Notes: a model not told the origin generated them from the letters alone. Positions 11,569 to 42,118 are shown, counted from the stretch's first letter. The stretch: 64,000 nucleotides of DNA from Candidatus Liptonbacteria bacterium (GCA_023244895.1 JAHFLL010000001.1:404741-468740), one strand, 5' to 3'. Program-made: numbers and translations.

Positions 11569-11901
11569 CTAATCTTTATTTACACTCCCCTGCACTCCCT
11601 CTGTTCTCGCTCTCTTTTGCCGTATTTTCTCCTTCAAAGATTCCAGCTCTCTTTCTAAGTCTTCTAAAAATTCCTTAGCGCCTTCACTGCGCTCTCGGAC
11701 TTCCCCGTCCGGCTCGCGTGGAGTTAGAATCCAGAAAATTATGTAAAACAAACCTCCTAGTCCATGGATTAAAAGTAAGGCCACGAATATCACTCTTACC
11801 AGGGTTGCGTCTATCTCGAAATGCTCCGCGAGTCCTCCGCAGACTCCGGCAATAATATGGTTTTTACGTGAACGATATAGGGTTTTTGGTTCCTTTGGCA
11901 T
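11569..11901 (-). CDS. PspC-domain membrane protein
   Basis: 110 aa with LYRSRKNHIIAGVCGGLAEHF (PspC domain), a TM helix and a helical acidic tail. Confidence 0.65.
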   Translation of the reverse strand: MPKEPKTLYRSRKNHIIAGVCGGLAEHFEIDATLVRVIFVALLLIHGLGGLFYIIFWILTPREPDGEVRERSEGAKEFLEDLERELESLKEKIRQKRARTEGVQGSVNKD

Positions 11902-11904
11902 AGC

Positions 11905-12939: not shown

Positions 12940-13194
12940 CTAATCGTGATTCTTCTGCCACCAATCCCTTAAAAAACTTAGCGATAAGGTGGATAGTAAA
13001 TACCCCAAAACAGGCACGAAAGCTTTTAGCCAAGGATACTTCTCGCTAATTAAGACCAGCCATATCCCCGCCACTACATAGGTCGCGACAGATATAAATA
13101 TCCTTCTGGTCCAGCTGGTTTCCCAAAATTTATCCAATTCAACCCTTGCGTTCCGCTCCTTAATCAGTTGTATCTCCTTTTCTATGTCCATCAT
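12940..13194 (-). CDS. Small 2-TM membrane protein
   Basis: 84 aa, hydrophobic. Confidence 0.4.
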   Translation of the reverse strand: MMDIEKEIQLIKERNARVELDKFWETSWTRRIFISVATYVVAGIWLVLISEKYPWLKAFVPVLGYLLSTLSLSFLRDWWQKNHD

Positions 13195-13200
13195 TTTAAA

Positions 13201-13914
13201 TTAAGTGGATGCCGCAAAATAAGTAGCTATAATAGCCGCCGTTTCCGCTCGTAAGGTCAGTTTGCCCAAGCTAATCACAGGATATTTGAGCGCCTTAACC
13301 AGGGCCAATTCTTTTTCCGTCCAACCGCCTTCCGGACCGACAAATATTCCCACCCGATCGGATTTAGCCAGCTTACCCCGCAAGGTCAGCGAATCTTTAC
13401 TACCTCCTCTTTCGTCAAAAAATATATTTAAATCGTTCTCTCTGGCTAGCGTCAGGGCCCCTTCCAGACTACGGGACTCCAGAATCTCCGGAATGGATAG
13501 TCTACCGGACTGCTCCGCCGCCTCCTTGGCAATCTTACGCAATCTTTCCAAAGAAAGACCCAGCTTAACCGTCCTTTCCGAGATAACCGGAACTATTTCC
13601 GAGGCGCCCGTCTCGGTCGCTTTTTGAACAACCAATTCAAAATTGTCTTTTTTGATTACCGCCGCGAAAAGGGTTATGTATTTTTTAGGTTCGGATCCCT
13701 CGTCTACCGGTCGGATGCTTTCAAAAACAACCCCACTCGCGCCTAACTCTGCTATTCGAACTAGAACCGCCCCGCCCTTACCATTCCCCAAAACTACCTC
13801 TTCCCCGGGACCAAGCCGTAGAACGTCCCTTATCTGATGCACTAAGCCCGGCTCAGAGGCATCCAAACGGTGCTGGCTTAGATCAAAATCGCCGATGAAG
13901 CGGTGTATTTTCAT
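13201..13914 (-). CDS. rsmE: 16S rRNA (uracil1498-N3)-methyltransferase
   Basis: RsmE pattern with the start likely at internal MKIHRF. A 4-nt overlap with the upstream gene fits that start. C-terminal SPOUT fold motifs (GPEGGWT). Confidence 0.75.
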   Translation of the reverse strand: MKIHRFIGDFDLSQHRLDASEPGLVHQIRDVLRLGPGEEVVLGNGKGGAVLVRIAELGASGVVFESIRPVDEGSEPKKYITLFAAVIKKDNFELVVQKATETGASEIVPVISERTVKLGLSLERLRKIAKEAAEQSGRLSIPEILESRSLEGALTLARENDLNIFFDERGGSKDSLTLRGKLAKSDRVGIFVGPEGGWTEKELALVKALKYPVISLGKLTLRAETAAIIATYFAAST

Positions 13915-14510
13915 GCTAGAGGGTTGTCCCATTTGACTCTTTTTTTGGACGGTTCGCTCCACCACAAGAACAGATACAGTAAGAATAACGCCAGAAAGTT
14001 AAACAGCAAGAAGGCCGGGGTCCCCCAGTCTATGCCCTGCGCGAACCTCCATTCTGAGATTGGCCAGAGAACCGGAGTCGCGGAGTATTCGTAGCTATGC
14101 GAAGGCACGTCTATCAAAATATGAAGCCCCCAGCCCAACATTGCCCAGAGAGAAGAACTGCGCCGAGCCTTTCGTCCCGTGAATAACCGGTAGAATAGAA
14201 CCACAAGAAGCATGGCGACGCAGAAAACAACCAGGCTATGACTTAGGCTATAGAATATGCGTGTTATGGTATTCGTGTCTACCAAGCCCAACTGTCCGTG
14301 TTGCGGTATTTGAGAATAATTTATTTTCCCGCTTACCAAATTCCACACATACACGGCCCACACCGGAGCAAAAACCACTACGTCCGGGAAAATGCCCCAC
14401 CCCGCCGTGAGTATTGGTCTTACCCGTAGATGTTTATGCTTAACTTTAAGATGACGGTTGGCTAATTGCGCCAAACCGGCTGACCAGAGAGCATGAGAAA
14501 ATATTTCCAT
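13911..14510 (-). CDS. Membrane-bound metal-dependent hydrolase (YdjM/DUF457-like)
   Basis: 199 aa with multiple TM helices and His-rich motifs (HSL, HILIDVPSH). Confidence 0.5.
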   Translation of the reverse strand: MEIFSHALWSAGLAQLANRHLKVKHKHLRVRPILTAGWGIFPDVVVFAPVWAVYVWNLVSGKINYSQIPQHGQLGLVDTNTITRIFYSLSHSLVVFCVAMLLVVLFYRLFTGRKARRSSSLWAMLGWGLHILIDVPSHSYEYSATPVLWPISEWRFAQGIDWGTPAFLLFNFLALFLLYLFLWWSEPSKKRVKWDNPLA

Positions 14511-14933
14511 TTATTTTTTTGTTCCTAGAAAGCGATTGACCAAAACAACCAGCAGGGTTACGAAAATTACCAAGACTATCACAGAAGACAAGGAGTTGTT
14601 ATATATATCAACCTGTCCTCTGCCAAAATCAATAACATTTTCTCTTATAAACCACAGCTCGTCTAATATTAACCCGATAGCTACCGCGATAAGTGGTAGT
14701 TGCAGCCAGCTTCTCTTTCTCTCGAACAACATAAGAATCGCGGAAAAGATCAAGAGAGATACTCCGTAGTCAAAGTGGTGCAGTTCGAACCCGAACAGTT
14801 TAGGATCAAAATCGCTGATATGAATATATATGCCAATTCTCGTAACAACTATCGTCAAGCAGATAAGAGAAACGAAAACTATGATCCTGTGATGAATCTC
14901 CAGCTTCTCAAATTTATCAATAAATTTTTTCAT
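14511..14933 (-). CDS. Hypothetical membrane protein
   Basis: 140 aa with 4 TM helices. Confidence 0.4.
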   Translation of the reverse strand: MKKFIDKFEKLEIHHRIIVFVSLICLTIVVTRIGIYIHISDFDPKLFGFELHHFDYGVSLLIFSAILMLFERKRSWLQLPLIAVAIGLILDELWFIRENVIDFGRGQVDIYNNSLSSVIVLVIFVTLLVVLVNRFLGTKK

Positions 14934-14934
14934 A

Positions 14935-15627
14935 TTAAAGTTCGTAAATCACATCTTTTCTCTCTACCACGACTTGCCAATTGTTCTTTCGCGCGACGCG
15001 ATATAAAAGAGAGTTGGGATTAAAACATATCGGATGTTCCACCATTTTAAGAAACGCTACGTCTGACTCCGTATCCCCCACACCCACCGAACCCTTTAGG
15101 GTTAAATTCTCTTTCTCTATGGCACGCTCCATAATCTTAGCCTTATCCATTATTAATTCCTCGTACTCAACCTTACCGGTAAATCTTTTATTCTTGTCTA
15201 ATTCCAGGATTCTGCCGTAAACCTTATTAAAACCCAGAGCGACCGCGAAATCATGCACGATATATTTAGGCGAATGAGAGATTGCCAAAAGATAATAGTT
15301 TCTATTTTTCAACTCCCTAATCAAATCACGGGTGTATCTATAAACTTTATCTTTATTGGCTCGTAATACTGCCCCTGAAGTCTTTTTAAATTCTGCTAAC
15401 TTAACTCCTTTTATATTCTTGCCGAAGACCCGCACCACACCCATTATGTATTCTTCATATCCGCCTACTCTATTTTGCCAATCATCTTTTTTTTGCAGAT
15501 ACTCCCGCTGAGTTTTTGGCGGAAAAATACCGCGGGCGATCATCTCATCCACGAGCTCAATTAGAAGACTGGAACGAAAAATAGTTCCGTCTATATCAAA
15601 CACCGCCAACTTCATTTTTTTTTGCAT
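14935..15627 (-). CDS. HAD-superfamily hydrolase (HAD-IB/PSPase-like)
   Basis: 230 aa with DIDGTI motif I and C-terminal GVGDTESD motifs III/IV. Confidence 0.7.
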   Translation of the reverse strand: MQKKMKLAVFDIDGTIFRSSLLIELVDEMIARGIFPPKTQREYLQKKDDWQNRVGGYEEYIMGVVRVFGKNIKGVKLAEFKKTSGAVLRANKDKVYRYTRDLIRELKNRNYYLLAISHSPKYIVHDFAVALGFNKVYGRILELDKNKRFTGKVEYEELIMDKAKIMERAIEKENLTLKGSVGVGDTESDVAFLKMVEHPICFNPNSLLYRVARKNNWQVVVERKDVIYEL

Positions 15628-16101
15628 CTATTTAAACAGATTGGCGAAACCACTAAGCAACCGTTGCCAGACCTCCCCCGAAACGCTCATCATAAAAGCT
15701 CCTAAACCAACCAACGTTGCGCCAATAGCCGCCCGCCAGGTGAATGGATCTTTTAGTACCAGAACGGCAAGAATGAAAACAAACAACAGGCTTAGTCTAT
15801 CTATCGCGGCTACCGCCGGAGCGGGACCGTGTTTTAGGGCGTAAAAATAGAATATCCAAGAGAGAGCTCCTGCCGCGCCTGCCAGAACTATCCAAAGCCA
15901 TTCCCGGTCGCTTACGGAATGCCAGGTAAAATTTCTGAATTTGCCGAGCAAAATAGCCGCAAGTAAAGTAATCCCCGCCATTACTACCGCGCGCAAAGCG
16001 GTGGCGAGGGTTGAATCTAGTTTAGACAGACCTATCTTGCCGAAAATAGCTACCAATGCGGCGCAAATCGCGGAAAGTAATGCGTACCAAAACCAATTCA
16101 T
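15628..16101 (-). CDS. Small EamA/DMT-family membrane protein
   Basis: 157 aa with 4-5 TM helices in an EamA-like pattern. Confidence 0.55.
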   Translation of the reverse strand: MNWFWYALLSAICAALVAIFGKIGLSKLDSTLATALRAVVMAGITLLAAILLGKFRNFTWHSVSDREWLWIVLAGAAGALSWIFYFYALKHGPAPAVAAIDRLSLLFVFILAVLVLKDPFTWRAAIGATLVGLGAFMMSVSGEVWQRLLSGFANLFK

Positions 16102-28613: not shown

Positions 28614-30356
28614 TTATCCCCCGGCAACCTGCTGTTTCCAGAGAGCGGCATACAGGCCGTTTTTACTTAGAAGTTCCGCCGCGGAACCACGCTCTATCAG
28701 CTTCCCCTTTTCTAATACAAAGATGGTTTCGGAATGGACAATCGTAGAAAGACGATGAGCCACAAGTATGGTAATGAGATCCGGGCGCGTGAATTTTATA
28801 TTTTTAATGGTAAGTGTTATGTCTTCCTCTGTTAGAGAGTCCAAACTGGAGGTCGCCTCGTCAAAAATAATCAGGTCGGGTTTGCGCAAAAGCGCTCGCG
28901 CTATAGCCAATCTTTGCTTTTCTCCGCCGGAAAGCTTGAGTCCACCCTCCCCAATGCGGGTTGAAAGACCATTCTCTCCACGCTCAATAAGCACACTGGC
29001 AGAGGCTGCCCTAAGCGCCTCCTCGCAATCCTCATCGCTCGCCAGAGGATTCGCGAACAACAGATTCTCTCTGATGGTTCCGGCGAAAAGCTGGGTGTCT
29101 TGCGAAACCAGACCCATCTTTTTTCTCAGCCCCTCCTTATCTATATTCAGGTAGGGCTCTCCATTAATGGTTATCTTACCGGCGGTAGGTTCATACAGTC
29201 CTACAAGCAGCTTTATGATAGTGGACTTGCCCGAACCGGACGGACCCACAAAGGCGGCAGTCTGCCCTGGCCCTATTTCAAAATCTATTCCATTTAGAGC
29301 ATGCTCCGAGCTGGACTGATAAGAGAAAAAGACTTTATCAAATTTTATCCTGTCTATTTTCCCGATCGCGACCGGATGTTCCGGCTTCTTTTCCGCGGGT
29401 GTTCGGAAAAGCTCTTCTAGGCGACCCATGCTTGCCCGCATTTCCTGATAGCTCTTAGTCACATTGCCCAACTCACTCAAAGGATTGAAGACCGCGAAAG
29501 AGTAGAAGAGCAAACTAAAGAACTGGCCAAGGGTAATAGTACCCCTAAAGATTAAAAGCAACATTAGGAGCAGTAGTCCGGAACGCAAAACGTTGATTAG
29601 CGTGCCTTGGATAAAACTCATCTTGCGCACCAGAATCACTTTCTTGAGCTCCAATTGCAATATTTTTTCGTTCACGTCGTTTAGGCGTCCGATCTCCTGC
29701 TTTTCCAAACCCAAACTCTTCACTAATTCCACGTTACGCAAAGTCTCGGTAGTAGAGCCCGCCAGCCCCGCGGTCTGCTCAATTATGGTTTTCTGGGCGG
29801 TCTTAATCTTGCGGCTAATATAGTAGGTAGCCACGCCCAAAATAGGAATAATGGAAAAGTAAATTAGGCCAATCAGCCAGTTGACCGAAAACGCGTAAGA
29901 CAAAACAAACACCACTCCGATTAGGGACAGAAAAACAATATTAATAGCTCCCCGAATAAATTCTTCCGCGTCCGTGCGCGCTTTTTGTAACTTTTGCAAA
30001 AACTCACCGGAGCGCTGGTCCTCAAATATGGCGTAAGGCAAAGAGAAGGAATGCTCCACACTGTCCGAATAAATCTTGGTGCCAACCCTCTGGACTACAA
30101 TGCTGACGTAATAATCTTGAAAATTTTTGGCTACCCGGGAGACAAAGGCCACGCCCACCGAAGCTAAAAGCAACAAACCCACCCCGCGATAGAATTCCGG
30201 CTGGCTTAAAGCATCTGCCTTGGTGGCGTAACCGTCTATCAGATGCCGGAATATCTGCGGATCCAGCAAGGAGAATATCTGGTTTATGGTGGCGAGCAGT
30301 AGTGCTAGAAAGAGAGCTCGCCGATAGTCTTTAACGTATTTCCAGAGTAATTTCAT
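28614..30356 (-). CDS. ABC exporter, fused permease/ATPase (MsbA-like)
   Basis: 580 aa with an N-terminal 6-TM domain, then Walker A, LSGGEKQRLAIARAL and Walker B. Confidence 0.85.
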   Translation of the reverse strand: MKLLWKYVKDYRRALFLALLLATINQIFSLLDPQIFRHLIDGYATKADALSQPEFYRGVGLLLLASVGVAFVSRVAKNFQDYYVSIVVQRVGTKIYSDSVEHSFSLPYAIFEDQRSGEFLQKLQKARTDAEEFIRGAINIVFLSLIGVVFVLSYAFSVNWLIGLIYFSIIPILGVATYYISRKIKTAQKTIIEQTAGLAGSTTETLRNVELVKSLGLEKQEIGRLNDVNEKILQLELKKVILVRKMSFIQGTLINVLRSGLLLLMLLLIFRGTITLGQFFSLLFYSFAVFNPLSELGNVTKSYQEMRASMGRLEELFRTPAEKKPEHPVAIGKIDRIKFDKVFFSYQSSSEHALNGIDFEIGPGQTAAFVGPSGSGKSTIIKLLVGLYEPTAGKITINGEPYLNIDKEGLRKKMGLVSQDTQLFAGTIRENLLFANPLASDEDCEEALRAASASVLIERGENGLSTRIGEGGLKLSGGEKQRLAIARALLRKPDLIIFDEATSSLDSLTEEDITLTIKNIKFTRPDLITILVAHRLSTIVHSETIFVLEKGKLIERGSAAELLSKNGLYAALWKQQVAGG

Positions 30357-31648: not shown

Positions 31649-32404
31649 CTACCCAGTGGTCTTTTTGAGTTCTGGAACAGTCTCTTCGAGCAACGCCTTG
31701 ATTTGATCTGAGTCAAGTGAGGACAATGCGGAATATCCACCCCTGAGATTAAGCCTGCGCATTATCAGACGTACTTTTGCCTCCTTGCTATTCGAAAATA
31801 ATGTTGGATTTCCCACTACAAATTCAAGCACGGCGAATCGTATGGTCTCATTTCTTCCTTGGGCACCAGGCAATAGATGCGTGGTGTAGTCCAACATGGA
31901 AAATACCTCTCGGGTAAGGACGTAGGGATCTTTTGCGTCCTTCGTCTTCGTGAGAGAAACAACCCACCAGAGCCTTGCGATGTCGTTGTTCATCAACGAT
32001 GCGGGACTCATCGGATCGACAAACCAATGATCGAGAATATATTTACCTCGCTTACTTTCCTTCTGGGCGGATACATCCGTCCTCTTTTTCATATAGTCGA
32101 AAAAGTCCACGTGGGTAAGGTATGTCCAAAAGCGCTCATCCGATGCGTCTTCGGGGCTCAGCGCGCTGTACGCTTCGAAAAGTCGTATCGCGGCCTCCGC
32201 AGAATCCCTACTGCCCCCGCCCGGCGGGTTGGGAAATAATATTTTGGACATGGGAACCTTCAGAGACGACTGCACCGTATCGATATCTTCGACGGAGAAA
32301 CTTTCTCCTAAATATTTTTTTACGCCTTTCCCTGTACGCAAATCATCCTTCATTCTAACGAGGGCTGCGGTCGTAAATATCGGTCTGGTGTTTTTTTCTG
32401 GCAT
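31649..32404 (-). CDS. Hypothetical protein, 4th gene of GHKL-ATPase operon
   Basis: 251 aa. Its start lies 1 nt after the upstream stop. No recognisable family (motifs RFWTYLTHV and ILDHWF). Confidence 0.6.
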   Translation of the reverse strand: MPEKNTRPIFTTAALVRMKDDLRTGKGVKKYLGESFSVEDIDTVQSSLKVPMSKILFPNPPGGGSRDSAEAAIRLFEAYSALSPEDASDERFWTYLTHVDFFDYMKKRTDVSAQKESKRGKYILDHWFVDPMSPASLMNNDIARLWWVVSLTKTKDAKDPYVLTREVFSMLDYTTHLLPGAQGRNETIRFAVLEFVVGNPTLFSNSKEAKVRLIMRRLNLRGGYSALSSLDSDQIKALLEETVPELKKTTG

Positions 32405-32405
32405 A

Positions 32406-33257
32406 TCAGGAGAATGTTATTTTATCGACGATATTGTTGAGATCGTTCAGCGAATTGGTGAGGGGGTAGTCGAATATCGCTTGCACCAGCTCGGGGATAT
32501 TTTCCACCGAGACGCCTATGCGGCGCATTCGATCCTCTTTCATCAGGTCGGTCAGTTTCTTGTGCCACTTCCTGTGGTTGTGCGTGGCACTCCTATCTTC
32601 CGACAAAAACTCGCTCATCACCCAAAGCATAGCCGGATATACGTACAGCGATATGAATACTCGTTTCAAATCTTCGCTCTTTTTAATCTTCTTCATATTT
32701 TCGTAATCCTCTTCGGGTAACTTTATGAGGATAGGGTCCGACCCCAATTCGTACTTAACATCTTTCCCTGCATGCTTGTAGAACATGAAAAATGCGCCTT
32801 CCGATCCCGGCGTCTCCCAATCTTTGGTGACCTCGAAAGAATCGCTGCCGCTGTATCCGAGTATTTCACCCTTATGAACCGTGAAAGTTTGCCCATCGAA
32901 GAAATCTGTGGTGTAGGCATTTTTGTATCGCGGTATATCCTGTTTTGCGATAATCAAACACGTCGCCACAACCGTATCTCTGAGATATTTCGAATCTATC
33001 CTTATTTGCCCCGAACCGTCTCCAGGAAGCTCGAAGCCCATTCGATACATCGTCGAGGAACAGGATACGTCGACAAAGAAAACCGCCTTGCCGTCAGTTA
33101 TTAATTTCTCCATAGCTTCGTTATGGAGGACCTGAGAAACGGTCAAGATCGTCTCTTTGGCGATAACGAGTCCAATATGGGTCTCGAACCTACCGACGAT
33201 TTCGCCTCCGTCCTTGCGTAGTATTGGATGCGGCAACGATACAATGTCGAGTTTCAT
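32406..33257 (-). CDS. Hypothetical protein, 3rd gene of operon (possible PD-(D/E)xK-like motif GD...IDSK)
   Basis: 283 aa. ATGA overlap with the GHKL gene. The weak PD-x9-DxK pattern is speculative. Confidence 0.6.
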   Translation of the reverse strand: MKLDIVSLPHPILRKDGGEIVGRFETHIGLVIAKETILTVSQVLHNEAMEKLITDGKAVFFVDVSCSSTMYRMGFELPGDGSGQIRIDSKYLRDTVVATCLIIAKQDIPRYKNAYTTDFFDGQTFTVHKGEILGYSGSDSFEVTKDWETPGSEGAFFMFYKHAGKDVKYELGSDPILIKLPEEDYENMKKIKKSEDLKRVFISLYVYPAMLWVMSEFLSEDRSATHNHRKWHKKLTDLMKEDRMRRIGVSVENIPELVQAIFDYPLTNSLNDLNNIVDKITFS

Positions 33258-35155
33258 CGAGATTTTTTGATTAGTTCAAAAGCGTTGAGCTTCAGGGAAT
33301 ATTTTCCGGATTCCGAAAATTTTACCTTCAGTCTCCTTGCGCCCATTTTATTCAAAACAAGATCACGTATCTCGTTTGCATTGAAGCTGGGCTGATTTTT
33401 AACCGTCTTATCCGCTATGATCGTTTGCAAAACTAACCTCTCGGAAGAATCGTCGCCACCCGCAACTATTTGAACGATGTCTATTTTCTTTCCTGGCTCT
33501 CCCTTGATCTGAATCTGATGAGTCGGATTACTTTCGGAGTCGGAACCCGCAAATGAAAGGAATGCGATACCCGCTAGCGGTCGCGCGTCGTTATTCTTTG
33601 TTTTCGATTTTTTCTTTCCCTTGTTTCTCTTGTCGGCAACTGGAATATATACATCCCCACCTTCCTTCTCGGCGCGTTCTTTGATGCTCAGGATCTTCTT
33701 TTTTACTTTCAGATCCAAATTCCGCATTTCCTCGACGGTCACCTCGTCGCCGTATTCTTTTTGGGTGTATTCTTTTTCTCCGCCCTGCGCTCCAGAACCT
33801 TCGTCGGTATCCATTGCAATAAAATCCTCCAACCCCTCGATAGAAAGATATCGTTCTTCCCGAGAGGTGCTCAGTTTTTGCAACTCCCTTTTGATAAAAT
33901 TCTCCATTTCCAGATACGCCAACTTGGCCTTTTCGCGATTCTCTTGCGTTTTGGCGTTCTCCCATTTCCATTCGTTGTGTTCCTGGTTCTCCATCTCCCT
34001 GAGGAGCGCATTACCATTTTCGTTGTCGCAAATAAAAACCGCGGCATACCGATTCATCGAATTCTTCTTGATGCAGTCCACGACCATGCCGGGTTTCCGG
34101 ATCAAAGCCACCCGGTTGGGATACCCGTCAGCCAGTAAAAGATGCAAGCGAACCTTGCCGAGGTGATCCAATTCGTCCTCTATCGGAGCATCCTTACGAT
34201 AGGCGTAGTAGAGAGGTAGCGGGTTCGGCACATCCGTGTTGCCCCACTCGAAAGGAGCTTTGCTGAAATATTTATGGAGGAGGTGTTCGACGGTATTTTG
34301 ATTGATGGTTTCGTTTTCCTGCACCTTAACGGTAAGCTTGCCCGTAATGATGGGCAGCCAGAAATAGCGGAGGATCGATTGAACCAATTCTGAGGCCCAA
34401 TCGTCCTCACCGATGAAATCGGGGATTAAAAAGTCCGTGCCAGGTCTTATTCGCTTAAACACGCTCGGAAAAAGCTTGGTGAAATTAGTTGGGATGAGAT
34501 CGCGGTCGTGAATCGGCTTTTGATCACCCACGCCGTAGGTACCGTTATTTTGTTTTCGCTTCCCGTCTTCTTCGAACGTGGTAACGATGGTTTTCCCAGC
34601 GAAGGTATAAGAGTTGGCCTCGTCGATACTGGAAATGAAAAGGGAAAGAAAGCCGGACGAGACATAGTAAGCGCCTTTTCCCAGACCGAACGATCCACCG
34701 CTCCCAGACTGTTTATTGCTGAAACCGACGGATTCCGCAAACCGGAACCAGTTCTCTTTTGTCATGCCGACAGTATTGAAATCACTGATCCTGAGAACTT
34801 TGACCGTGGTATTTTTCGAGATTTTACTCGCTCCTTTCTCGAATTCGACTGCCGTATCAATCGCTCCTTTCTCCCTCAAATAAACGGCGCACGCCGAAAG
34901 TATCTTCGCGAGCCGCTCGGCTCCAGGCACGCTTTTGGCGGGCATCGTAACAACGCTGAATTCAGCTTCAACGGGCTTCCCTGAACTCGAATCGTGCGCG
35001 TCCATTATATTTTGGAGGGCCTCTCGGGCGATATAGTAGGAAGGATTACCGCGAAATTCAACCGTGGGCCCAGCATTCGGGCCATCGGCCATACCCCCCC
35101 CGAGATCCCCGAAAATCCATTCAGGCTTATTTGAATCTGTTGAAGTCTTGGGCAT
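33254..35155 (-). CDS. GHKL-superfamily ATPase (Hsp90/MORC/MutL-like Bergerat fold), 2nd gene of operon
   Basis: 633 aa with N-box EALQNIMDA, G1 box DFNTVGMTKE (Hsp90-like DxGxGMTK) and G2 GSGGSFGLGKG. It also has a Lys-rich low-complexity linker and a ~100-aa C-terminal domain. Confidence 0.7.
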   Translation of the reverse strand: MPKTSTDSNKPEWIFGDLGGGMADGPNAGPTVEFRGNPSYYIAREALQNIMDAHDSSSGKPVEAEFSVVTMPAKSVPGAERLAKILSACAVYLREKGAIDTAVEFEKGASKISKNTTVKVLRISDFNTVGMTKENWFRFAESVGFSNKQSGSGGSFGLGKGAYYVSSGFLSLFISSIDEANSYTFAGKTIVTTFEEDGKRKQNNGTYGVGDQKPIHDRDLIPTNFTKLFPSVFKRIRPGTDFLIPDFIGEDDWASELVQSILRYFWLPIITGKLTVKVQENETINQNTVEHLLHKYFSKAPFEWGNTDVPNPLPLYYAYRKDAPIEDELDHLGKVRLHLLLADGYPNRVALIRKPGMVVDCIKKNSMNRYAAVFICDNENGNALLREMENQEHNEWKWENAKTQENREKAKLAYLEMENFIKRELQKLSTSREERYLSIEGLEDFIAMDTDEGSGAQGGEKEYTQKEYGDEVTVEEMRNLDLKVKKKILSIKERAEKEGGDVYIPVADKRNKGKKKSKTKNNDARPLAGIAFLSFAGSDSESNPTHQIQIKGEPGKKIDIVQIVAGGDDSSERLVLQTIIADKTVKNQPSFNANEIRDLVLNKMGARRLKVKFSESGKYSLKLNAFELIKKSR

Positions 35156-35157
35156 TT

Positions 35158-35388
35158 TTATAGTTCAAACTCCTTCTCTTGTTTTTCTTCACCCCGAAAA
35201 CGAGCTTCCGCCTTCGCAAGCGCGTCTTTCATCGCCCCGAAAATCTTCCTTAATTGGTCTGGGGTGTAGTCGTAAAGCCCACGATTATGGAGATTGGAAA
35301 CGATCCGGATATCGTCGAGGACTTTCCTGACCCTTTTCTCCGCCAGCCGCTTGAACCGTTCCGCCTTTTGTTCGTTATTTTTTGACAT
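35158..35388 (-). CDS. Small helical basic protein, 1st gene of operon (possible DNA-binding/regulator)
   Basis: 76 aa. Its stop lies 2 nt before the GHKL ATG. A TTGACA-17-TATACT promoter sits upstream. Confidence 0.45.
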   Translation of the reverse strand: MSKNNEQKAERFKRLAEKRVRKVLDDIRIVSNLHNRGLYDYTPDQLRKIFGAMKDALAKAEARFRGEEKQEKEFEL

Positions 35389-35412
35389 AGTATTTTAGGA
35401 AGTATTTCCTGA

Positions 35413-35441
35413 AGTATATTCTATAGTATTTTCTATGTCAA
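35413..35441 (-). promoter_or_regulatory. Sigma70-like promoter for the 4-gene operon (TTGACA-17-TATACT on minus strand)
   Basis: Read directly from the sequence. It lies just downstream of a small GC hairpin that terminates vsr. Confidence 0.4.
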
Positions 35442-35446
35442 GTCTC

Positions 35447-35869
35447 TTATCTTCGGGCCTCTTCGGGGCCTAAACACCTCTTCATTTTGGTCTCTACGCG
35501 ATCCGGATGCTTCTTTATGACCGATCCCCAGAATCGGAGCACCTTATAACCGCGTTTGCGTAGTTCCCTGATCTGACGGCTGTCCCTTTTTATATTCGCA
35601 GCAATTTTTGATTTCCAAAAATCGGGAATTCGTGCGCCCCATTTTTTAAGCCCTCTTCCATGCCAAAAATCGCCATCCGCGAAGATGGCGATTTTATTTT
35701 TCACAAAGACAATGTCGGGTTTTCCCGGGAGACTGGCTACGTTTTTTCTGTAGCGTTCAATTTTCCAAAAAGGCCTGACTATTCTGCCCAATAGTTTTTC
35801 GATGTCGGTATTTTTTGTACCGACTTTCTTCATCAATACGCTACGCGCTTCTTTGGTTAATTTATCCAT
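35447..35869 (-). CDS. vsr: Very-short-patch-repair endonuclease
   Basis: Motif FADGDFWHGR (compare the FVDGCFWHGH Vsr signature) with conserved Asp/His. The start is probably internal MDKLT. Confidence 0.75.
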   Translation of the reverse strand: MDKLTKEARSVLMKKVGTKNTDIEKLLGRIVRPFWKIERYRKNVASLPGKPDIVFVKNKIAIFADGDFWHGRGLKKWGARIPDFWKSKIAANIKRDSRQIRELRKRGYKVLRFWGSVIKKHPDRVETKMKRCLGPEEARR

Positions 35870-36389
35870 GCTCCTCGACGCGTGGATAAATAATGCGTGC
35901 CTCTGCGACAAGAGCTTTAGTAACTGTTATATTCCATCCCCGCATAGTCTTGTGCCACTTCTTCAGTCTGAAAAATTGTTCCCATGTGATCTCTAAAATT
36001 TTCTTTGGCTGCAGATTCTGATCTATTAAAACAATAACGACGTACTCGAATTTCTTTTCCGAGGGATGCTCGATTTCGGGATCACCGAGTCCGTAAAAAA
36101 CACTCGTCAAACTGTTCGGCTCGGTAATTGTCTTTATGCTGTACCTGTCTCCCTTCCGACTCAATGCATCAACATTCTGGGTTCCTTCCGGAGCTGCTTG
36201 GAGCTTAGGCAACCCGGGAATTTTGTTATATGTTTCGATGGCCAAAAACTCGCCACGTTCCCCGGTGATGTTCTTGGTCCGTATTAACCCTCGCTTTTTC
36301 AAAAGAGTAATCGCAAACGCGTAGACGCTCCACACGACGTCATCACTGGCAGCCTCTATCTTCTCAAATATCTCAAATTCCTTTCCCAT
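35862..36389 (-). CDS. Hypothetical protein between dcm and vsr (R-M associated)
   Basis: 175 aa, translationally coupled to its neighbours. No recognised family. Confidence 0.45.
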   Translation of the reverse strand: MGKEFEIFEKIEAASDDVVWSVYAFAITLLKKRGLIRTKNITGERGEFLAIETYNKIPGLPKLQAAPEGTQNVDALSRKGDRYSIKTITEPNSLTSVFYGLGDPEIEHPSEKKFEYVVIVLIDQNLQPKKILEITWEQFFRLKKWHKTMRGWNITVTKALVAEARIIYPRVEEHG

Positions 36390-36397
36390 GAGTAAAT

Positions 36398-37384
36398 CTA
36401 CAGAAATTTTATTATTTCACGGCCAATTTCCCGTATCACGTTTATCGCCACGCTATTTCCGAGCTGCTTGAGCATCTGCGTATGTGTAACCGTTGTTGGA
36501 AAATCGAAATCCGCCGGAAATCCCATCATCGTTTTCATCTCACCCACAGTCAAGACATGTTTTTCCCCTCCAACAATATATGTATCCCAACTCCTCTTGT
36601 CCACAAACCATTCTCCGTTTCTTTTTTTGTATACTGGCGACCCGCGCCCACCAACTCGAATGGTTCTCCCTATCTTGTTCGGCCATTTCTTATCTTTAAA
36701 GAATTTACATAAAGTCGTGCCTCCTGGACTAGTTGGCTTTGGGAATTTAAATTCCTTGGCGCCAGGCGCTCCTTTTTTAAAGGCCACTAAATAAAATCTG
36801 GGTCGAGCGGTCGGCAGACCGAAATCGCTGGCATTCAGAAAGTTCCAGGAATCGTCTCGCTCCTCGTTTACGTAATATCCAGCCCTGTCCAGTTTTTCCA
36901 AGATAATTTGGAACGTATGCTTATTGTCGTGATTAACAATGTTCCTCACGTTCTCCAGAAAAATAACCTTCGGCTGCTTGGCCAAAATTATTCTCTCTAT
37001 GTCACCGAATAGGGTGCCTCTGTCATCATCAAATCCCCGTTTTTGTCCGATACGACTGAACGGTTGGCATGGGAAACCAGCACACAATACATCGAATTTT
37101 GGTATAACCCTTTTTATATTTTTATCCCAAATTGTTTTTGATTGCCCAGTATCAGTAAGGGTTATGTCCTTTATGCTTTTCCAAAAATAGGGTTCGCGCT
37201 TCTTGCTTTTAAACAATTCGGGGTTGGTCTTACGAAAATTATGCTCGTATGTCTTCCGTGCATTCTCGTCGAATTCATTTACGAACACGCATTCACCGCC
37301 GAGCTCCTGTAGCGCGAGATGGAATCCACCGATTCCAGCGAAAAGGTCAATAAATGTAAACTTTGGCCTCCTTTTCTTTTTCAT
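36398..37384 (-). CDS. dcm: DNA (cytosine-5)-methyltransferase
   Basis: Motif I FIDLFAGIGG, motif IV GFPCQPFS, ENV, and the C-terminal target-recognition and motif IX/X pattern. Confidence 0.85.
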   Translation of the reverse strand: MKKKRRPKFTFIDLFAGIGGFHLALQELGGECVFVNEFDENARKTYEHNFRKTNPELFKSKKREPYFWKSIKDITLTDTGQSKTIWDKNIKRVIPKFDVLCAGFPCQPFSRIGQKRGFDDDRGTLFGDIERIILAKQPKVIFLENVRNIVNHDNKHTFQIILEKLDRAGYYVNEERDDSWNFLNASDFGLPTARPRFYLVAFKKGAPGAKEFKFPKPTSPGGTTLCKFFKDKKWPNKIGRTIRVGGRGSPVYKKRNGEWFVDKRSWDTYIVGGEKHVLTVGEMKTMMGFPADFDFPTTVTHTQMLKQLGNSVAINVIREIGREIIKFL

Positions 37385-37464
37385 TATTTATACAATCAGA
37401 ATAGCATAATTTCCCTCCATTTTCACAGATTTATATACCCCAGCGATGCGCCAGAGCGAATGGT

Positions 37465-38475
37465 TTATCTTGCTTTATGGGATAGCTCAAATAACTTGTC
37501 CTTTATGCTTTCAAACTGGGCTCTAGTAATTGGATATGGTGTACCCCCGCCATGATTGAAAGAGTTTGAAAATGGCTCGCTGAATTCTCCCTGTTTCCCA
37601 AATTTCAGCTCAATATCCTTCTTGGACTTTTTCTTTATCTCAAAATCAACAAAGTGAGGCCAGTGCCGGTTATTTATTTCCAGGGTCCTTCTCTGATCTT
37701 CAAAAAATGTCCCCCTGTGGTTGTCGAGCGCCATATAATACGGTTCGACAATACTGCAAATGTAGTATCTGTAAATAGTTATCTCCGTCTTAGGGTTTTT
37801 GGGCATAGCCATACTATTCCCGGCCTTACCGAATATAAAAAGTATCTTGTCGCCTTTCTGCATATCCAGAATATGCGGCAATGCTTTTGCATGCTGTCGG
37901 AATGCCCAGAACGGCTTAGAGGGCTTACTCTTGAGCATCCTATCAAAGTTCTTCACCGCAGGGCCATTGGCTCCTCCTTTTAAGAATACGACCCAATATT
38001 GACTCTTGCTTGAAAGATTCTTGCTCTCGGCCTGATAAATTAGAGACTCCCGCGAGAGCCGAGAAATATTTTCCGCGACCCAATCGGCAAAATCATCATG
38101 GTCAATGGCTACAACGTCTATCCCCTCATATGTCTTTAAATCAGTCTCCCCAAGGACAACAACAAAACCATCTTTTTCTTTTATATATCTTTTCTGATTG
38201 TCTTTCTTAAAATCGGTTAAATGCCATTTGACCTCTACCGGTATGCCGTTCTGCCGTTTTTTAAAAAAGATCTCCAGGTCGGCTCGATAACGAGCTTCTG
38301 TCTTGGACCCTTCGGGTACAATAAGATTTATCTGATCTTTTTGGAGTCTTTCCGGAAGCAATTTTCTCCTCTGGCCAGAATCACCAAAATAATATCTTTC
38401 GAAAAGATAACGGTGGATCAGCTTTTCGTTAAAGGCATTTCGGTTGATCTTTTTGAAGATATCCAGTCCGCTCAT
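37465..38475 (-). CDS. Putative type II restriction endonuclease (N-terminal PD-(D/E)xK: RADLEIF...PVEVKW)
   Basis: 336 aa, located immediately upstream of dcm on the same strand. It has a D-x12-EVK motif. This is an inference. Confidence 0.5.
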   Translation of the reverse strand: MSGLDIFKKINRNAFNEKLIHRYLFERYYFGDSGQRRKLLPERLQKDQINLIVPEGSKTEARYRADLEIFFKKRQNGIPVEVKWHLTDFKKDNQKRYIKEKDGFVVVLGETDLKTYEGIDVVAIDHDDFADWVAENISRLSRESLIYQAESKNLSSKSQYWVVFLKGGANGPAVKNFDRMLKSKPSKPFWAFRQHAKALPHILDMQKGDKILFIFGKAGNSMAMPKNPKTEITIYRYYICSIVEPYYMALDNHRGTFFEDQRRTLEINNRHWPHFVDFEIKKKSKKDIELKFGKQGEFSEPFSNSFNHGGGTPYPITRAQFESIKDKLFELSHKAR

Positions 38476-38610
38476 TAAAATCTCTTATGTTTTTTATGAC
38501 CTACCCCTTCTTCCAATCCCTGATGGTGAATCCGCCGGGGGGAAGTTTTGGGCTCTTATTTACCTTAAATAATATGCCCCTCTTTTGGCTTTAGCAAGAA
38601 TAAAATTCAA

Positions 38611-38694
38611 GGCAGTAAGTAGATAGTAGCAAGTAGTAGGTAGAAGGCGGAGTATATAAAAAAGAACCAGCCCCGGACGCGCGTCGCGCCGGGG
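38611..38694. repeat. Composite repeat copy 1: C-depleted GTAG/TAGAAG tract + 48-bp terminator module (GCGGAGTATATAA..CCCCGGACGCGCGTCGCGCCGGGG)
   Basis: 47 of 48 bp match 39974..40021. On the minus strand this is a hairpin plus T-run terminating the PNP gene. Confidence 0.55.
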
Positions 38695-38726
38695 CCGGAA
38701 TAGAATCCGTCTGACTTCTCCGCCAC

Positions 38727-39614
38727 TTACGCCGCTTCGCTCCGGCGGTAGAGCTCGAAGAACCTGAGGAAGATCTTGGCGACACGCCGGCGGACCGGCG
38801 GGCTCTTCAAGACCCTCACGACCTCCTCGTGATTGGTCGCGTTTGTGCCATCCTTCTTGGTTGTATTGGACACGATGGAAACGGCGAGCGTGCGCAGACC
38901 GCGATTGGTCGCGACGATCACTTCGGGCGCGGTAGACATGCCCATCGCGTCCCCGCCCAGAATCCGAATCGCACGGACCTCCGCGGGGGTCTCGTAGGTC
39001 CGTCCGGTCTGGACGAAGAGCACGCCCCTGTGGACACGCCGAGACTCTCGCACGATTGCGGCCGCGCGGTGGAACATACTGCGCAGCTTCAGGTCGTACG
39101 TGCCGACCTTGGGGTACATGGGCTGGAAGTACCAGTTGCTCCCAAAGTCCAAATGCGGTCCGAGAAGCGGGTTGGGCATCGCGAGAGCGATGTGGTCCGT
39201 GACCACCATCAGATCTCCGACCTTGTAGGACATGTTCGCCGCGCCGACTGCGTTGGTCGACATGTAGATCTGGACACCGAGCTCCGCCATCACCTGGACG
39301 GCGAGGGTAACCCACCACATCGCCCGCGGGTCGGGAGCGGCGTTGTAGTAGTGCTCCCGGCCGGACAAGGCGAAAACGGGCACGCCAGCGATGGTCCCGT
39401 AGATCAGCTCGCCCTTGTGCCCCGGAGCGCTCACGCCCGGGAAACCGGGAATCAGCCGATACGGGATCACAACCTCCTTCACCATCTGCTCGGCGAGGTC
39501 GTCCATCCCCGAGCCTAGCGTGAGCGAAATCTTGGGCATGGGGCCATTCACCCTGCTCCGGATGTAGGCTGCCGCCGCCCGAACCTTGGCCACGTAGACT
39601 TTCGGCGAGATCAT
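38727..39614 (-). CDS. Purine nucleoside phosphorylase (PunA/MTAP family), GC-rich foreign cassette
   Basis: 295 aa with GSGMDDLAE, SGREHYY and MGMSTAPEVIVA...NHEEV. A strong SD (GGGAGG) lies upstream. The gene is markedly GC-richer than the genome. Confidence 0.8.
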   Translation of the reverse strand: MISPKVYVAKVRAAAAYIRSRVNGPMPKISLTLGSGMDDLAEQMVKEVVIPYRLIPGFPGVSAPGHKGELIYGTIAGVPVFALSGREHYYNAAPDPRAMWWVTLAVQVMAELGVQIYMSTNAVGAANMSYKVGDLMVVTDHIALAMPNPLLGPHLDFGSNWYFQPMYPKVGTYDLKLRSMFHRAAAIVRESRRVHRGVLFVQTGRTYETPAEVRAIRILGGDAMGMSTAPEVIVATNRGLRTLAVSIVSNTTKKDGTNATNHEEVVRVLKSPPVRRRVAKIFLRFFELYRRSEAA

Positions 39615-39837
39615 CTCTCAGTCCCTCCCTGTTATGCCTCACGGAATAATATCAAAACCGTTTCGGATAGCTCCTCGCGGCTCATCACATCATTATGCAG
39701 TCAGGTATAAAAATCAATGTAGTAAGCGAAAGTAGAGGCTAGTAGCTAGAAGGTAGTAGGTAGCGAGCAAAATGAACCTAAACGGGAAAACACTGCTCAT
39801 CTCTCACTAACCCTATCTCCCCCAACTCACACCCCCG

Positions 39838-40021
39838 TGGTGGGTACTATACTACGGTATAGCGGAGGATAGTAGGTAGAATATATAAGGTAGAAGTTGG
39901 AAGATGGGAAGTGGTAGGTAAAAAGCGAGGGGTAGAAGTTAGAAGATAGAAGTTGGAAGGTAGAAAGTAGAATGCGGAGTATATAAGAAAGAACCAGCCC
40001 CGGACGCGCGTCGCGCCGGGG
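39838..40021. repeat. Composite repeat copy 2: 23-bp palindromic motif + C-depleted purine tract + 48-bp terminator module
   Basis: GGTACTATACTACGGTATAGCGG, then about 100 nt with almost no C (GGTAGAAGTTAGAAGATAGAAG...), then the terminator module for the lipoprotein gene. Confidence 0.55.
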
Positions 40022-40041
40022 CGGTCAATCTCATCATCCTA

Positions 40042-40746
40042 CTAGTCATAGAAGCGCGTCACCGGGGAGTAGTGCTCCCGGATGAAGGCGTTGAAGCAGG
40101 GACCTTCCTTCTGGCCACAGGCAAGCCAGCCTCTATACATAGTGGCACCGACCGGGTCCAGGTTGCGGCCCGCCCTCACTAGAGCAGAGACGGTATAGCG
40201 GCAGGTCCTGTCCCATGCGGTGACCTCGGAGGCGATCAGCGCCTCCTTACCGTCCACGTTGTCACAGCCACTCGCAAGATGCTCCAGCTCGTGGAGAAGA
40301 CCGATCACGATCGAGACTTCGAAGGTCTGCGGCGTGACCTTTCCGCTTCGATAGAACTGTAGCTGGGCCGGTACGAAGATCCGGAGCACGGGATTGCCAC
40401 CCCGAGCATCGCAACCGGCCAAGACGTCTCTGGAGCGGTTATTGAAGGACGTGCTGGCCTCGATGGCGAACACCTTGCCGTAGCGCTCAGCGCTCCGCCT
40501 GGAGAGCTCCAGATAACGGTTGTTGATGTCCGAAACCGAATACCTGGCCCGGAGCACCTCCTCCATCACGGTCCGGTTGAAGTGGGAGTCCCAGAACGCG
40601 TGGAGCTCCTCGTCCGAGAACTTGCGCTCCACCCTCTCCGCCACGGTGGGGGTGGGTTCATTCTTCTTGTCTATGGGGCAACCAAGAACCAGAAGAATGG
40701 TCGTCAGAAACAGGATGCGCGCCGTTCTTCCGCGTCGCATGGACAC
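40042..40746 (-). CDS. Lipoprotein with HExxH zinc-metallopeptidase motif, GC-rich cassette
   Basis: Signal peptide with lipobox LVLGC, HELEH motif, and an SD (AGGGGAGG) before a GTG/ATG start. Confidence 0.55.
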   Translation of the reverse strand: MSMRRGRTARILFLTTILLVLGCPIDKKNEPTPTVAERVERKFSDEELHAFWDSHFNRTVMEEVLRARYSVSDINNRYLELSRRSAERYGKVFAIEASTSFNNRSRDVLAGCDARGGNPVLRIFVPAQLQFYRSGKVTPQTFEVSIVIGLLHELEHLASGCDNVDGKEALIASEVTAWDRTCRYTVSALVRAGRNLDPVGATMYRGWLACGQKEGPCFNAFIREHYSPVTRFYD

Positions 40747-40895
40747 AGGTTGCCTCCCCTATTGTTTTGCCGTCATTGCGGCGATGGTAAACGAACCGAC
40801 CATATAATACAATTTTTCATGTAAAACACAAGATAACCCTCTTTCATTAATTATCTAGCCCCTCACGTCCCCAGCTTGACTAGGACATAGCACCA

Positions 40896-41064
40896 GGTAA
40901 CAAGTAGTGGCTAGTAATTAGTATTGAATAACGGTGAGTTAGAAGACGGTGGTTGGTAGTTAGAACGTGGAAAGTGGAACGTAGAACTACTGCCACTACT
41001 ACAATCATAATTCCGCTTACTCATCCATCAACCCCCACAGTGGGCACTATACTACGGTATAGTT
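40896..41064. repeat. Third copy of purine-rich tract + 23-bp palindromic motif (GTGGGCACTATACTACGGTATAG)
   Basis: Same orientation as the copy at 39842, and upstream of the plus-strand gene 41153. Confidence 0.45.
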
Positions 41065-41152
41065 ATCCACAGATAGGCATTGACGCACAGACTGGACGGC
41101 TATAGTTTTAAATCAGCCCCCGAAACGTTAACCTCTTTCAAGGAGCAGTGTC

Positions 41153-41392
41153 ATGGGTAGCAACAACACGCCACGGTACGAGGAAGACACTCGGCAGGTC
41201 TCCTCGGCCACCAGTGCGGCGGGCATGGCAGCGGCAGTCATGATTGCCGGGCCGTTCGCAGCGCTGTTCGTCGATCCGAACGACAAGTGGGAGCACACCA
41301 TCACCGATACCCAGACTGGTAACCAGGTTGTGGGTACCGGGAGCACCCCGCAAGAAGCTCGCGACGAAGCCCTGGGCAACATGCGTCGCTAA
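41153..41392 (+). CDS. Small hypothetical protein (79 aa), GC-rich
   Basis: AAGGAG sits 7 nt upstream of the ATG. No recognised family. Confidence 0.45.
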   Translation: MGSNNTPRYEEDTRQVSSATSAAGMAAAVMIAGPFAALFVDPNDKWEHTITDTQTGNQVVGTGSTPQEARDEALGNMRR

Positions 41393-41564
41393 TCGTTTAG
41401 CGAACATCCAGCCCGGATATAAAAAGAGGTACAGACACAAAAGTAAGGCAAGAAAGGGGCAAAATAGCCCGCCGCAATTAGCGGAAAATCCACAAGGCGC
41501 ATATTACGCGCGAGCCCCGGCTATTGCTAACGCACCCGGGGTTTTTGAATATTAAAATCAACAC

Positions 41565-41612
41565 AAAAAGCGAGACCCCGGACGCAGCACGATGCTGGCC
41601 GGGGCCCGAACT
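41565..41612 (-). terminator. GC hairpin terminator related to the CCCCGG..CCGGGG module
   Basis: Minus-strand GGGCCCCGGCCAGCA..TGCTGCGTCCGGGG followed by a T-rich run, located after the zinc-ribbon gene. Confidence 0.35.
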
Positions 41613-41631
41613 CTTCTCCACGCACAGAACG

Positions 41632-41895
41632 CTATTGCGGAGGCCAGATGGACTCGTCCTCGCAGACGGGACACTCGTAGCGATCTCCTCGCCTGGCCGA
41701 CTCTGGCAACTGCTTGTCGCAATTGGGGCAGACCGGTACCAAAACAGTGTCCTCGTTGGCGGGCAGTCGGCAACATTGCGGGCAGTAGCCCGCAACCTTG
41801 CCGTTTCGATCTTCTACCCTCTCCAGCAACCCTCCGCACGCCTTGTGCGCGGACCACCACTCTGTCGGCTTCAAGGCGATCGCCAGAACGCTCAT
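41632..41895 (-). CDS. Zinc-ribbon mini-protein (CPQCC...CPNC...CPVC)
   Basis: 87 aa with a strong SD (GGGAGGAG) and three CxxC pairs. Confidence 0.5.
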   Translation of the reverse strand: MSVLAIALKPTEWWSAHKACGGLLERVEDRNGKVAGYCPQCCRLPANEDTVLVPVCPNCDKQLPESARRGDRYECPVCEDESIWPPQ

Positions 41896-41908
41896 CCGAT
41901 TCTCCTCC

Positions 41909-42118
41909 CTAGCACCTGGTGCAGGATGTCACGGTGCAGTAGGTCTTGGATTCCGGTCCGCCGCTTCTGCGAGCGCTGTCGTTGCAGCCCTCGCAGACCA
42001 GGGCGTTTCCACCCCGGACCAGACCCGCGCCATTGCAGTGCGAGCACTTCTCGCCCTTCTTCCCGCCGCTCCCTCGGCAGAAGGAGCAATTCATGACCGG
42101 GACGTCTCCGAGCGCCAT
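41909..42118 (-). CDS. DnaJ-type zinc-finger mini-protein (CxxCxGxG repeats)
   Basis: Start taken at MALGDV with the SD GGGGGA. Motifs CSFCRGSGG, CSHCNGAG and CEGCN. Confidence 0.45.
   Translation of the reverse strand: MALGDVPVMNCSFCRGSGGKKGEKCSHCNGAGLVRGGNALVCEGCNDSARRSGGPESKTYCTVTSCTRC

Follow-up and report, generated by a model that had tools for sequence, protein, structure and literature searches.

In a 64,000-nucleotide (nt) stretch of Candidatus Liptonbacteria bacterium DNA (GCA_023244895.1 JAHFLL010000001.1:404741-468740; hereafter the window, whose coordinates are used throughout), four minus-strand genes at 35447–38475 encode a C5-cytosine DNA methyltransferase (Dcm), a very-short-patch T:G mismatch endonuclease (Vsr) and two predicted nucleases of 336 and 175 amino acids (aa), here called p336 and p175. 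On balance, the evidence favors reading this block as Dcm and Vsr accompanied by two predicted modification-dependent nucleases, in a layout resembling the MspJI locus, and not as a classical type II restriction–modification (R-M) pair. An earlier note, made from the sequence alone, had described a compact 5-methylcytosine (5mC) type II R-M module with its own mismatch repair. The dcm and vsr genes of that description stand and the R-M pairing is not supported, as neither nuclease behaves as a cognate restriction endonuclease (REase). Measured against a classical type II system, the methylase is present and an adjacent cognate REase is not, and scans with Pfam, NCBIfam and PADLOC found no conventional REase in the island beside Dcm. 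Dcm is either an orphan or the partner of an adjacent cassette, which consists of a gene for a 76-aa protein (p76) and homologues of PDC-M33, a phage-defense candidate of PADLOC with three genes, A, B and C.

The open reading frame (ORF) listing places all four genes on the minus strand with the lengths given in the earlier note: p336 (37465–38475), dcm (36398–37384, 328 aa), p175 (35862–36389) and vsr (35447–35869, 140 aa from an ATG at 35869). The longest vsr ORF (35447–35911) would start at a TTG and encode 154 aa, but public gene calls on the identical contig prefer the ATG. The genes had been described as overlapping throughout; in fact only the end of p175 and the start of vsr do so, sharing the 8 nt ATGGATAA, and dcm is separated from p175 by 8 nt and p336 from dcm by 80 nt. 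The identical four-gene block is present on two Logan contigs and is thus not an assembly artifact of the window; SRR14366796 and SRR14366791 contain the identical contig.

The 175-aa protein, previously listed as unknown, is a homologue of the BisI family. Over its full length it matches the PADLOC model PDLC03205 mREase_II (type II methyl-directed restriction enzyme; 1.1e-60) and three sister models, while Pfam and NCBIfam gave no match. A search of the PDB with the single sequence reached at best an E value of 0.38 (Eco15I), and a profile of 30 sequences matched Eco15I (8q5m) end to end at 7e-4, bringing the catalytic E, D and K into register. The AF2 model (pLDDT 90.4) retrieved NhoI (4e-10) and Eco15I (3.6e-8) in Foldseek, with TM scores of 0.57–0.66, followed by DpnI and PvuII. 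Sequence profile and model together place p175 in the BisI-fold family as a distant member, a small PD-(D/E)xK protein. Its predicted active-site residues are E47, D74, S84-I-K86 and E115; of these, E47, D74 and K86 are invariant in the family and align with catalytic residues of Eco15I that are experimentally essential (PMC11347163). More than 590 homologues exist at approximately 60% identity, mainly in Patescibacteria/candidate phyla radiation (CPR), and 469 representatives remain at the 50% clustering level. Longer proteins with a p175 domain (255–397 aa) carry only DUF6998 and one NERD match, and none of them joins the domain to Vsr, a methylase or a reader; DUF6998 had no match in the searchable literature. 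Signature peptides of p175, sought in the supplements of the BisI papers as a sign that a close relative had been tested, gave no match either, and no homologue was found in a phage collection.

The genomic context of p175 was surveyed in 33 species-level loci, a modest sample, with a neighborhood radius of 3 kb. A C5 methylase lies within this distance in 19 of the 33 loci (58%) and Vsr in 11, directly downstream and on the same strand in 8. By comparison, background loci from similar genomes, namely those of the p336 family, have a C5 methylase in 0 of 64 cases and Vsr in 1 of 64, and the link of p175 to 5mC systems is therefore real and not random. Throughout the 33 loci p175 is approximately 60% identical, whereas the adjoining C5 methylases are 22–74% identical to the Dcm of the window and have unrelated target recognition domains (TRDs). 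These methylases have at least four or five different specificities and come with their own REases, for instance RE_HpaII (4e-115), R-HINP1I (5e-86), RE_LlaMI (2e-59) and RE_Eco47II (8e-58), together with a further weak EcoRII-C match. Even the nearest relatives of p175 (73–86% identity) have differing partners or none. In 13 or 14 of the 33 loci there is no methylase, and p175 is found amid housekeeping genes, often near dnaX. In many Paceibacteria-type genomes it follows dnaX (DNA polymerase III gamma/tau) at a distance of one to three genes (loci L016, L021, L022, L024, L025, L027, L034 and L035, around 5000–8500), an adjacency that suggests either a hot spot conserved on the chromosome or a solitary p175 inherited vertically.

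Because p175 stands alone in some loci, and because it keeps its sequence while the neighboring methylases change specificity, it does not qualify as the REase cognate to Dcm. Solitary occurrence also means that p175 must spare unmodified host DNA. Two relatives, L118 and L120, have dcm–vsr without p175, an optional cassette inserted between the two genes. On Rhizobium/Sinorhizobium plasmids, an operon of CopG, a C5 methylase, a 192-aa protein, Vsr and a p175-like protein (37–41% identical) places the p175-like gene after vsr with a 4-nt overlap (L109 NC_019846, L112 NC_007766, L113 and L111).

The second nuclease, p336, has approximately 115 homologues, all annotated as hypothetical. The RADLEIF...PVEVKW nuclease motif reported in the earlier note lies at aa 64–84, with E55, D66, E81 and K83 unchanged across 36 homologues. 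No match was returned for it by NCBIfam or by a single-sequence search of the PDB. In the AF2 model (pLDDT 87.4), a PD-(D/E)xK domain at aa ~10–150 (E55, D66, E81-V-K83) is followed by an EVE/YTH-like reader of the PUA superfamily at aa ~155–336. The N-terminal half resembles the PD-(D/E)xK nucleases SfsA (6.8), Bax1 (6.7), NgoMIV (6.4) and NucS (6.1), and the predicted structure thus has the nuclease fold on which the earlier note had staked its reading. In Foldseek, the C-terminal half matched PH1033 (5.6e-5) and THYN1 bound to 5mC DNA (6e-5), and the reader also matches VcaM4I and McrB-N with m5C DNA.

Members of the p336 family are solitary in Photobacterium, on a complete Patescibacteria chromosome and in Archangium. 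None of the 64 other p336 loci, likewise a modest sample, has a C5 methylase neighbor, and a search for a recurrent DNA methylase among 113 neighbors of the family found none, with N6/N4 methylases accounting for only 2 of the 113. The window, in which p336 adjoins dcm, is the exception, and p336 is absent beside the closest Dcm orthologues (L003, L004, L118 and L120; 60–77% identity, same TRD). This pattern resembles that of modification-dependent restriction endonucleases in which a PUA-superfamily domain is joined to a nuclease, fewer than 6% of which are near a methylase (PMC6765204). Because a modified-base reader is fused to the nuclease and no C5 methylase occurs across the 64 loci, p336 is predicted to be a solitary modification-dependent (type IV-like) enzyme by its signature, and not a cognate REase. 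The slot 5' of dcm is variable: it holds a 160-aa GIY-YIG/DUF7695 protein (606–1088, plus strand) in L004, the closest Peregrinibacteria relative, and a TraG-D_C-like fragment in L003.

The catalytic motifs of Dcm are intact. It matches PF00145 (2e-73), TIGR00675 (5e-71) and PADLOC MTase_II (3e-85), and motif alignment recovered the motifs I (FAGIGG), IV (PCQ) and VI (ENV) named in the earlier note, as well as IX and X. Motif VIII (aa ~190–200) reads TARPR instead of QxRxR, a variant shared with the closest orthologues in L003 and L004. The clade to which this Dcm belongs is further marked by insertions at two points, behind motif II and ahead of motif VIII. In BLAST searches the TRD (aa 201–295) resembles only two groups of methylases: the orthologues in L003, L004, L118 and L120 (56–77% identity) and the methylases of L008, L009 and L119 (36–41% identity, E 1e-9 to 1e-12). 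The methylases of this second group have a neighbor of the R.HpaII family (PF09561 RE_HpaII). A CCGG-like site is suggested for Dcm because its TRD resembles methylases partnered with R.HpaII-type enzymes, although this is a lead and not a result. Avoidance of CCGG was not detected in the window, with an observed-to-expected ratio (O/E) of 1.07, and the O/E of GCNGC (0.75) is no lower than that of several unrelated palindromes; at 64 kb such a test of motif avoidance is uninformative. The most under-represented palindromes in the window are TCGA (O/E 0.56), GATC (0.60), and TGCA and CTAG (0.68), and GCNGC (0.75) and GGNCC (0.71) are mildly low; other restriction pressures in the lineage could account for these values. 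The assignment of vsr holds, with 101.7 bits against the 97.85 cut-off of TIGR00632 and a PF03852 match at 3.4e-21, and the catalytic DGxFWHG segment is present as FADGDFWHG.

The defense genes extend beyond the four that the earlier note described, as its coordinates stop short of p76 and PDC-M33ABC at 31649–35388. After vsr come a promoter-like site, p76 and then the PDC-M33 A, B and C homologues, the last three co-directional and with full-length matches to the respective PADLOC models. The promoter-like site (35413–35441, minus strand; TTGACA-17-TATACT, 11/12) is a consensus match only, and matches of this kind are no more frequent in the region than expected from shuffled sequence; read as a promoter, it suggests that p76–M33ABC is a separate transcription unit. 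The gene for p76 (35158–35388, minus strand) directly precedes that of M33A, and the ORF has homologues in L003, L004 and L017. M33A (33254–35155, minus strand) is a 633-aa ORF, called as 612 aa in public gene calls (PDLC04582, 9.9e-91); M33B (32406–33257, minus strand) has 283 aa (PDLC04583, 1.2e-44), and M33C (31649–32404, minus strand) has 251 aa and belongs to DUF6339 (PDLC04586, 8.4e-36; PF19866 in public gene calls). Pfam detected no known domain in the M33 proteins, and sequence searches of the PDB with M33A, B and C gave no meaningful match. Read by eye, the N-terminal ~200 aa of M33A contain GHKL (Bergerat-fold) ATPase-like motifs (REALQNIMDA, SDFNTVGMT and GSFGLGKGA). DUF6339 and PDC-M33 had no match in the searchable literature. 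A MADS-like system, raised by PADLOC mad3/mad8 matches on a 580-aa protein (28614–30356), was rejected, the protein being an ABC transporter.

In nearly all PDC-M33 loci examined, whether on plasmids or in metagenomes, M33A is immediately preceded by a gene for a protein of 72–80 aa, and p76 is probably a fourth component of the cassette, beyond the three-gene PADLOC definition. The searchable literature held no mention of this conserved small gene. The order dcm–p175–vsr–p76–M33ABC recurs in L003 and L004. In L118 and L120 the order is C5 methylase–Vsr–p72–M33ABC, without p175 and without a REase; the methylases there are 75% and 60% identical to Dcm and have the same TRD. Among 14 distinct M33 loci, a modest sample that includes L003, L004, L101–L107 and L118–L122 and spans CPR, Bacteroidota, Elusimicrobiota, Deinococcota, Actinomycetota and Bacillota, a C5 methylase occurs within approximately 4 kb in 12, usually just before the cassette and in the same orientation. 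Five further loci from metagenomes or genomes and six plasmid contexts, representing five other phyla, almost always show a C5 methylase ahead of the small gene and M33ABC. These methylases come with Vsr and/or REases of the HpaII, AlwI or MutH/Sau3AI type, and in one M33 lineage an N6 methylase takes the place of the C5 enzyme. Such a pattern suggests that PDC-M33 is functionally linked to 5mC methylation; p76 and PDC-M33ABC accompany this Dcm lineage more consistently than any other of the neighboring genes. One of the M33 loci, L121 (Elusimicrobiales, 1–15944), is a dense defense island with a SLFN-type helicase, HNH_2, a C5 methylase, HNH, M33ABC, a second C5 methylase, GmrSD and a DUF3427 helicase.

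Several observations weigh against modification dependence of the two nucleases, a property that we infer from homology and gene context. For p175, identity to NhoI and Eco15I is only 18–20%, and the glutamine of the BisI QxK motif corresponds to S84, a serine in at least 90% of family members. SxK variants do occur in other REases, for instance Cfr10I. In an HMM alignment whose loops are of low confidence, the (H/R)(V/I/T/M) methyl-contact motif (H139-V140 in Eco15I) lies opposite the invariant T148-M149 of p175, itself within a conserved W-H-x-T-M-R-x-W-N segment, and the proximal R98 of Eco15I lies opposite G102. The residues of the methyl pocket are thus unconserved, and methyl dependence is not readable from the sequence of p175. 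In addition, the nesting of p175 in operons, between the REase or methylase gene and vsr, is tighter and more specific than ordinary clustering in defense islands and could mean that it takes part directly in 5mC repair or in the workings of the R-M system. As for p336, matches to YTH, an m6A reader, are about as strong as those to EVE, so the modeled fold may serve 5mC, 5-hydroxymethylcytosine (5hmC) or 6-methyladenine (6mA) and does not tell which base is sensed. The Pfam EVE model gives p336 a sub-threshold E value of 0.032 and detects only 1 of 36 members of the family; the EVE assignment is a structural one, drawn from the model. Finally, a 5mC-reading nuclease encoded just upstream of an apparently active Dcm would carry a risk of self-restriction, an arrangement atypical of a family with no C5 methylase at its 64 other loci.

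Four other explanations of the locus were weighed. It is very unlikely that p336 is a conventional type II REase cognate to Dcm, with Vsr as a repair add-on and p175 as a passenger. Its gene is co-directional with dcm and close upstream, its PD-(D/E)xK core is intact and the island offers no other conventional REase, yet the C-terminal half has the fold of a modified-base reader, the family lacks C5 methylases at its 64 other loci and has N6/N4 methylases as only 2 of 113 neighbors, the closest Dcm orthologues do without p336, and CCGG shows no avoidance in the window. A BisI fold switched to cutting the unmethylated site would instead make p175 the REase of Dcm. The BisI homologues Bce1273I and Bth171I do cut unmodified DNA (PMC4926085), and p175 has an unconserved methyl pocket and directly follows dcm in the window, L003 and L004, where no other REase is found. 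This idea is nevertheless highly improbable, given that relatives of p175 at 60–86% identity lie beside methylases of unrelated TRD that have their own HpaII-, HinP1I-, LlaMI- or Eco47II-type REases, or beside no methylase, and that the Dcm orthologues in L118 and L120 lack p175.

The 8-nt overlap with vsr, the directly downstream Vsr of 8 of the 33 loci and the recurrence of a vsr–p175-like overlap on rhizobial plasmids are what could be expected if p175 were a repair accessory of Dcm and Vsr, recognizing 5mC or T (5-methylpyrimidines) in duplex DNA and assisting Vsr in the processing of deamination damage. Enzymes of the BisI family accept T in place of 5mC, even in T:G mispairs (PMC11347163), and p175 is independent of methylase specificity. 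On the other hand, Vsr is missing from the 3-kb neighborhood in 8 of the 19 loci linked to a methylase, and approximately 40% of loci lack both methylase and Vsr; E. coli Vsr is known to work without such a partner, the family is patchy in the manner of defense genes, and the PADLOC/REBASE-derived model places p175 among methyl-directed REases. A repair accessory is accordingly judged unlikely. A further proposal, possible but clearly doubtful, holds that Dcm, together with Vsr, is the self-marking arm of a system whose true restriction or effector arm is p76 with PDC-M33ABC, p175 and p336 being independent add-ons; it is compatible with the favored explanation of the two nucleases. The conserved order dcm–(p175)–vsr–p76–M33ABC in L003 and L004, the L118 and L120 loci without REase and p175, and the 12 of 14 M33 loci with a C5 methylase all speak for it. 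However, many M33 loci hold a classical REase (HpaII, AlwI or MutH/Sau3AI) to whose R-M system the methylase may belong, and one locus type has an N6 methylase instead. Methylase TRDs vary by locus with no matching specificity subunit evident in M33, the M33 proteins lack a recognizable nuclease or reader domain, and a strong promoter-like site separates vsr from p76.

For the favored reading, that of Dcm and Vsr accompanied by two modification-dependent nucleases, the folds, conserved catalytic residues and gene-context statistics described above lead us to infer the following mechanism. Dcm would methylate a short host motif, probably CCGG-like, and Vsr would repair the T:G mismatches that arise from deamination of 5mC. 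As a type IIM, BisI-like enzyme, p175 would read methyl groups in duplex DNA, and p336, as a type IV-like enzyme, would read a flipped modified base in its EVE pocket. Both would cut incoming DNA that has patterns or densities of cytosine modification never made by the host Dcm, for example phage genomes that carry 5mC or 5hmC along their entire length, or DNA that a promiscuous phage methylase has methylated. Phages display multispecific methylation and hypermethylation, and DNA modified in this way would evade methylation-sensitive restriction. A nuclease for densely methylated DNA would close this escape route from 5mC-sensitive REases, and p175 may travel with 5mC R-M systems of any specificity because it closes the hypermethylation loophole. 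The same logic, attack on foreign modification patterns, has been proposed for BisI enzymes (PMC11347163).

A bolder and rather unlikely extension is that C5 methylase operons recruit specificity-independent modules, the p175 cassette and p76–PDC-M33ABC, both functionally coupled to 5mC systems and not just neighbors of them. In its strongest form, Dcm, Vsr, p76 and M33ABC would be a new R-M-like defense system. A GHKL-type ATPase complex would act as effector in place of a conventional REase, as in L118, L120 and the window, and p175 would be a backstop that destroys DNA escaping by heavy cytosine methylation.

The four genes are the upstream half of a minus-strand defense island of approximately 7 kb (31649–38475) amid housekeeping genes. 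The remainder of the window encodes housekeeping proteins such as SecA, TGT, QueA, SAM synthetase, AdoHcy hydrolase and BipA, and the nearest relatives of the window proteins are found in metagenome-assembled genomes of Peregrinibacteria/CPR. No convincing direct or inverted repeats were found at the flanks of the island, nor was an integrase. GC content is 42–46% within the island and 56–57% in the adjoining 3 kb (39000–42000), which hold the purine-nucleoside phosphorylase gene and its neighbors. That gene is followed, just upstream of p336 (38476–38730), by a terminator-like GC hairpin and a run of T.

The building blocks of the locus (Dcm, Vsr, a BisI-family nuclease and an EVE–nuclease fusion) are known and its layout has precedents, so this is not a new kind of system. 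Three aspects are new in that they were not found in the searchable literature: a divergent, CPR-rich BisI subfamily (SxK, T-M) in complete 5mC R-M operons, a reversed PD-(D/E)xK–EVE architecture missed by sequence models, and the strong linkage of PDC-M33 to C5 methylases. The p175 subfamily sharpens a question raised by MspJI, namely why modification-dependent nucleases travel with C5 methylases and vsr, and, given the altered residues of its methyl pocket, it is a candidate for a novel specificity. The C5 methylase before PDC-M33, in turn, supplies a concrete hypothesis on this candidate system.

Among known systems, the MspJI locus of Mycobacterium sp. JLS encodes a C5 methylase (M.MspJIP), a Vsr (V.MspJIP) and the modification-dependent endonuclease MspJI; about half of the MspJI homologues adjoin 5mC methylases and the rest are solitary, an association judged to be non-incidental (PMC2938202). 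Like the four-gene block, this locus looks like a typical R-M system, with a C5 methylase, vsr and an endonuclease, and its endonuclease proved to be modification-dependent. The distribution of p175, with a C5 methylase in 19 and Vsr in 11 of 33 loci, follows the same pattern. MspJI itself differs: it is a 456-aa, Mrr-like protein with an SRA-like reader and cuts at a distance, whereas p175 is a single-domain BisI-fold protein. Also unlike MspJI, p175 is often nested in R-M operons with an intact conventional REase, and the window contains a second reader–nuclease in p336. Within the BisI family, p175 shares the size (150–190 aa) and PD-(D/E)xK fold of BisI, NhoI and Eco15I (PDB 8q5n, 8rpx, 8q5m and 8q5o), but its subfamily is set apart by the low identity, the SxK and T-M residues and the missing proximal Arg. 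For cleavage, enzymes of the BisI family need several 5mC within GCNGC. The BisI gene adjoins a C5 methylase gene, although most BisI homologues lack a companion methylase (PMC4926085); the p175 subfamily, mainly from Patescibacteria/CPR, has one in 58% of its loci.

Nuclease fusions of the PUA superfamily (EVE/SRA/YTH) include VcaM4I, TspA15I (EVE-HNH) and YenY4I (EVE-DUF3427-PD-(D/E)xK) (PMC6765204; PMC7897488). As in these, p336 combines a reader fold with a fused nuclease that has conserved catalytic residues, and its family mostly occurs without a methylase. The order of its domains is reversed, with the nuclease N-terminal and the reader C-terminal; it has PD-(D/E)xK instead of HNH, lacks DUF3427 and has an EVE match below the Pfam curated threshold. 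In the window it also adjoins dcm, unlike the PUA/EVE family. The dcm–vsr pair of E. coli, an orphan C5 methylase gene overlapped by vsr, resembles the present block in having a C5 methylase with a dedicated Vsr and no cognate conventional REase; the block differs in the nuclease gene that separates dcm from vsr and in its location within a defense island. Compared with the PADLOC definition of PDC-M33, the cassette of the window has in addition a gene of approximately 76 aa before M33A and is one of a group of loci in which a C5 methylase almost always precedes, with or without Vsr and a REase.

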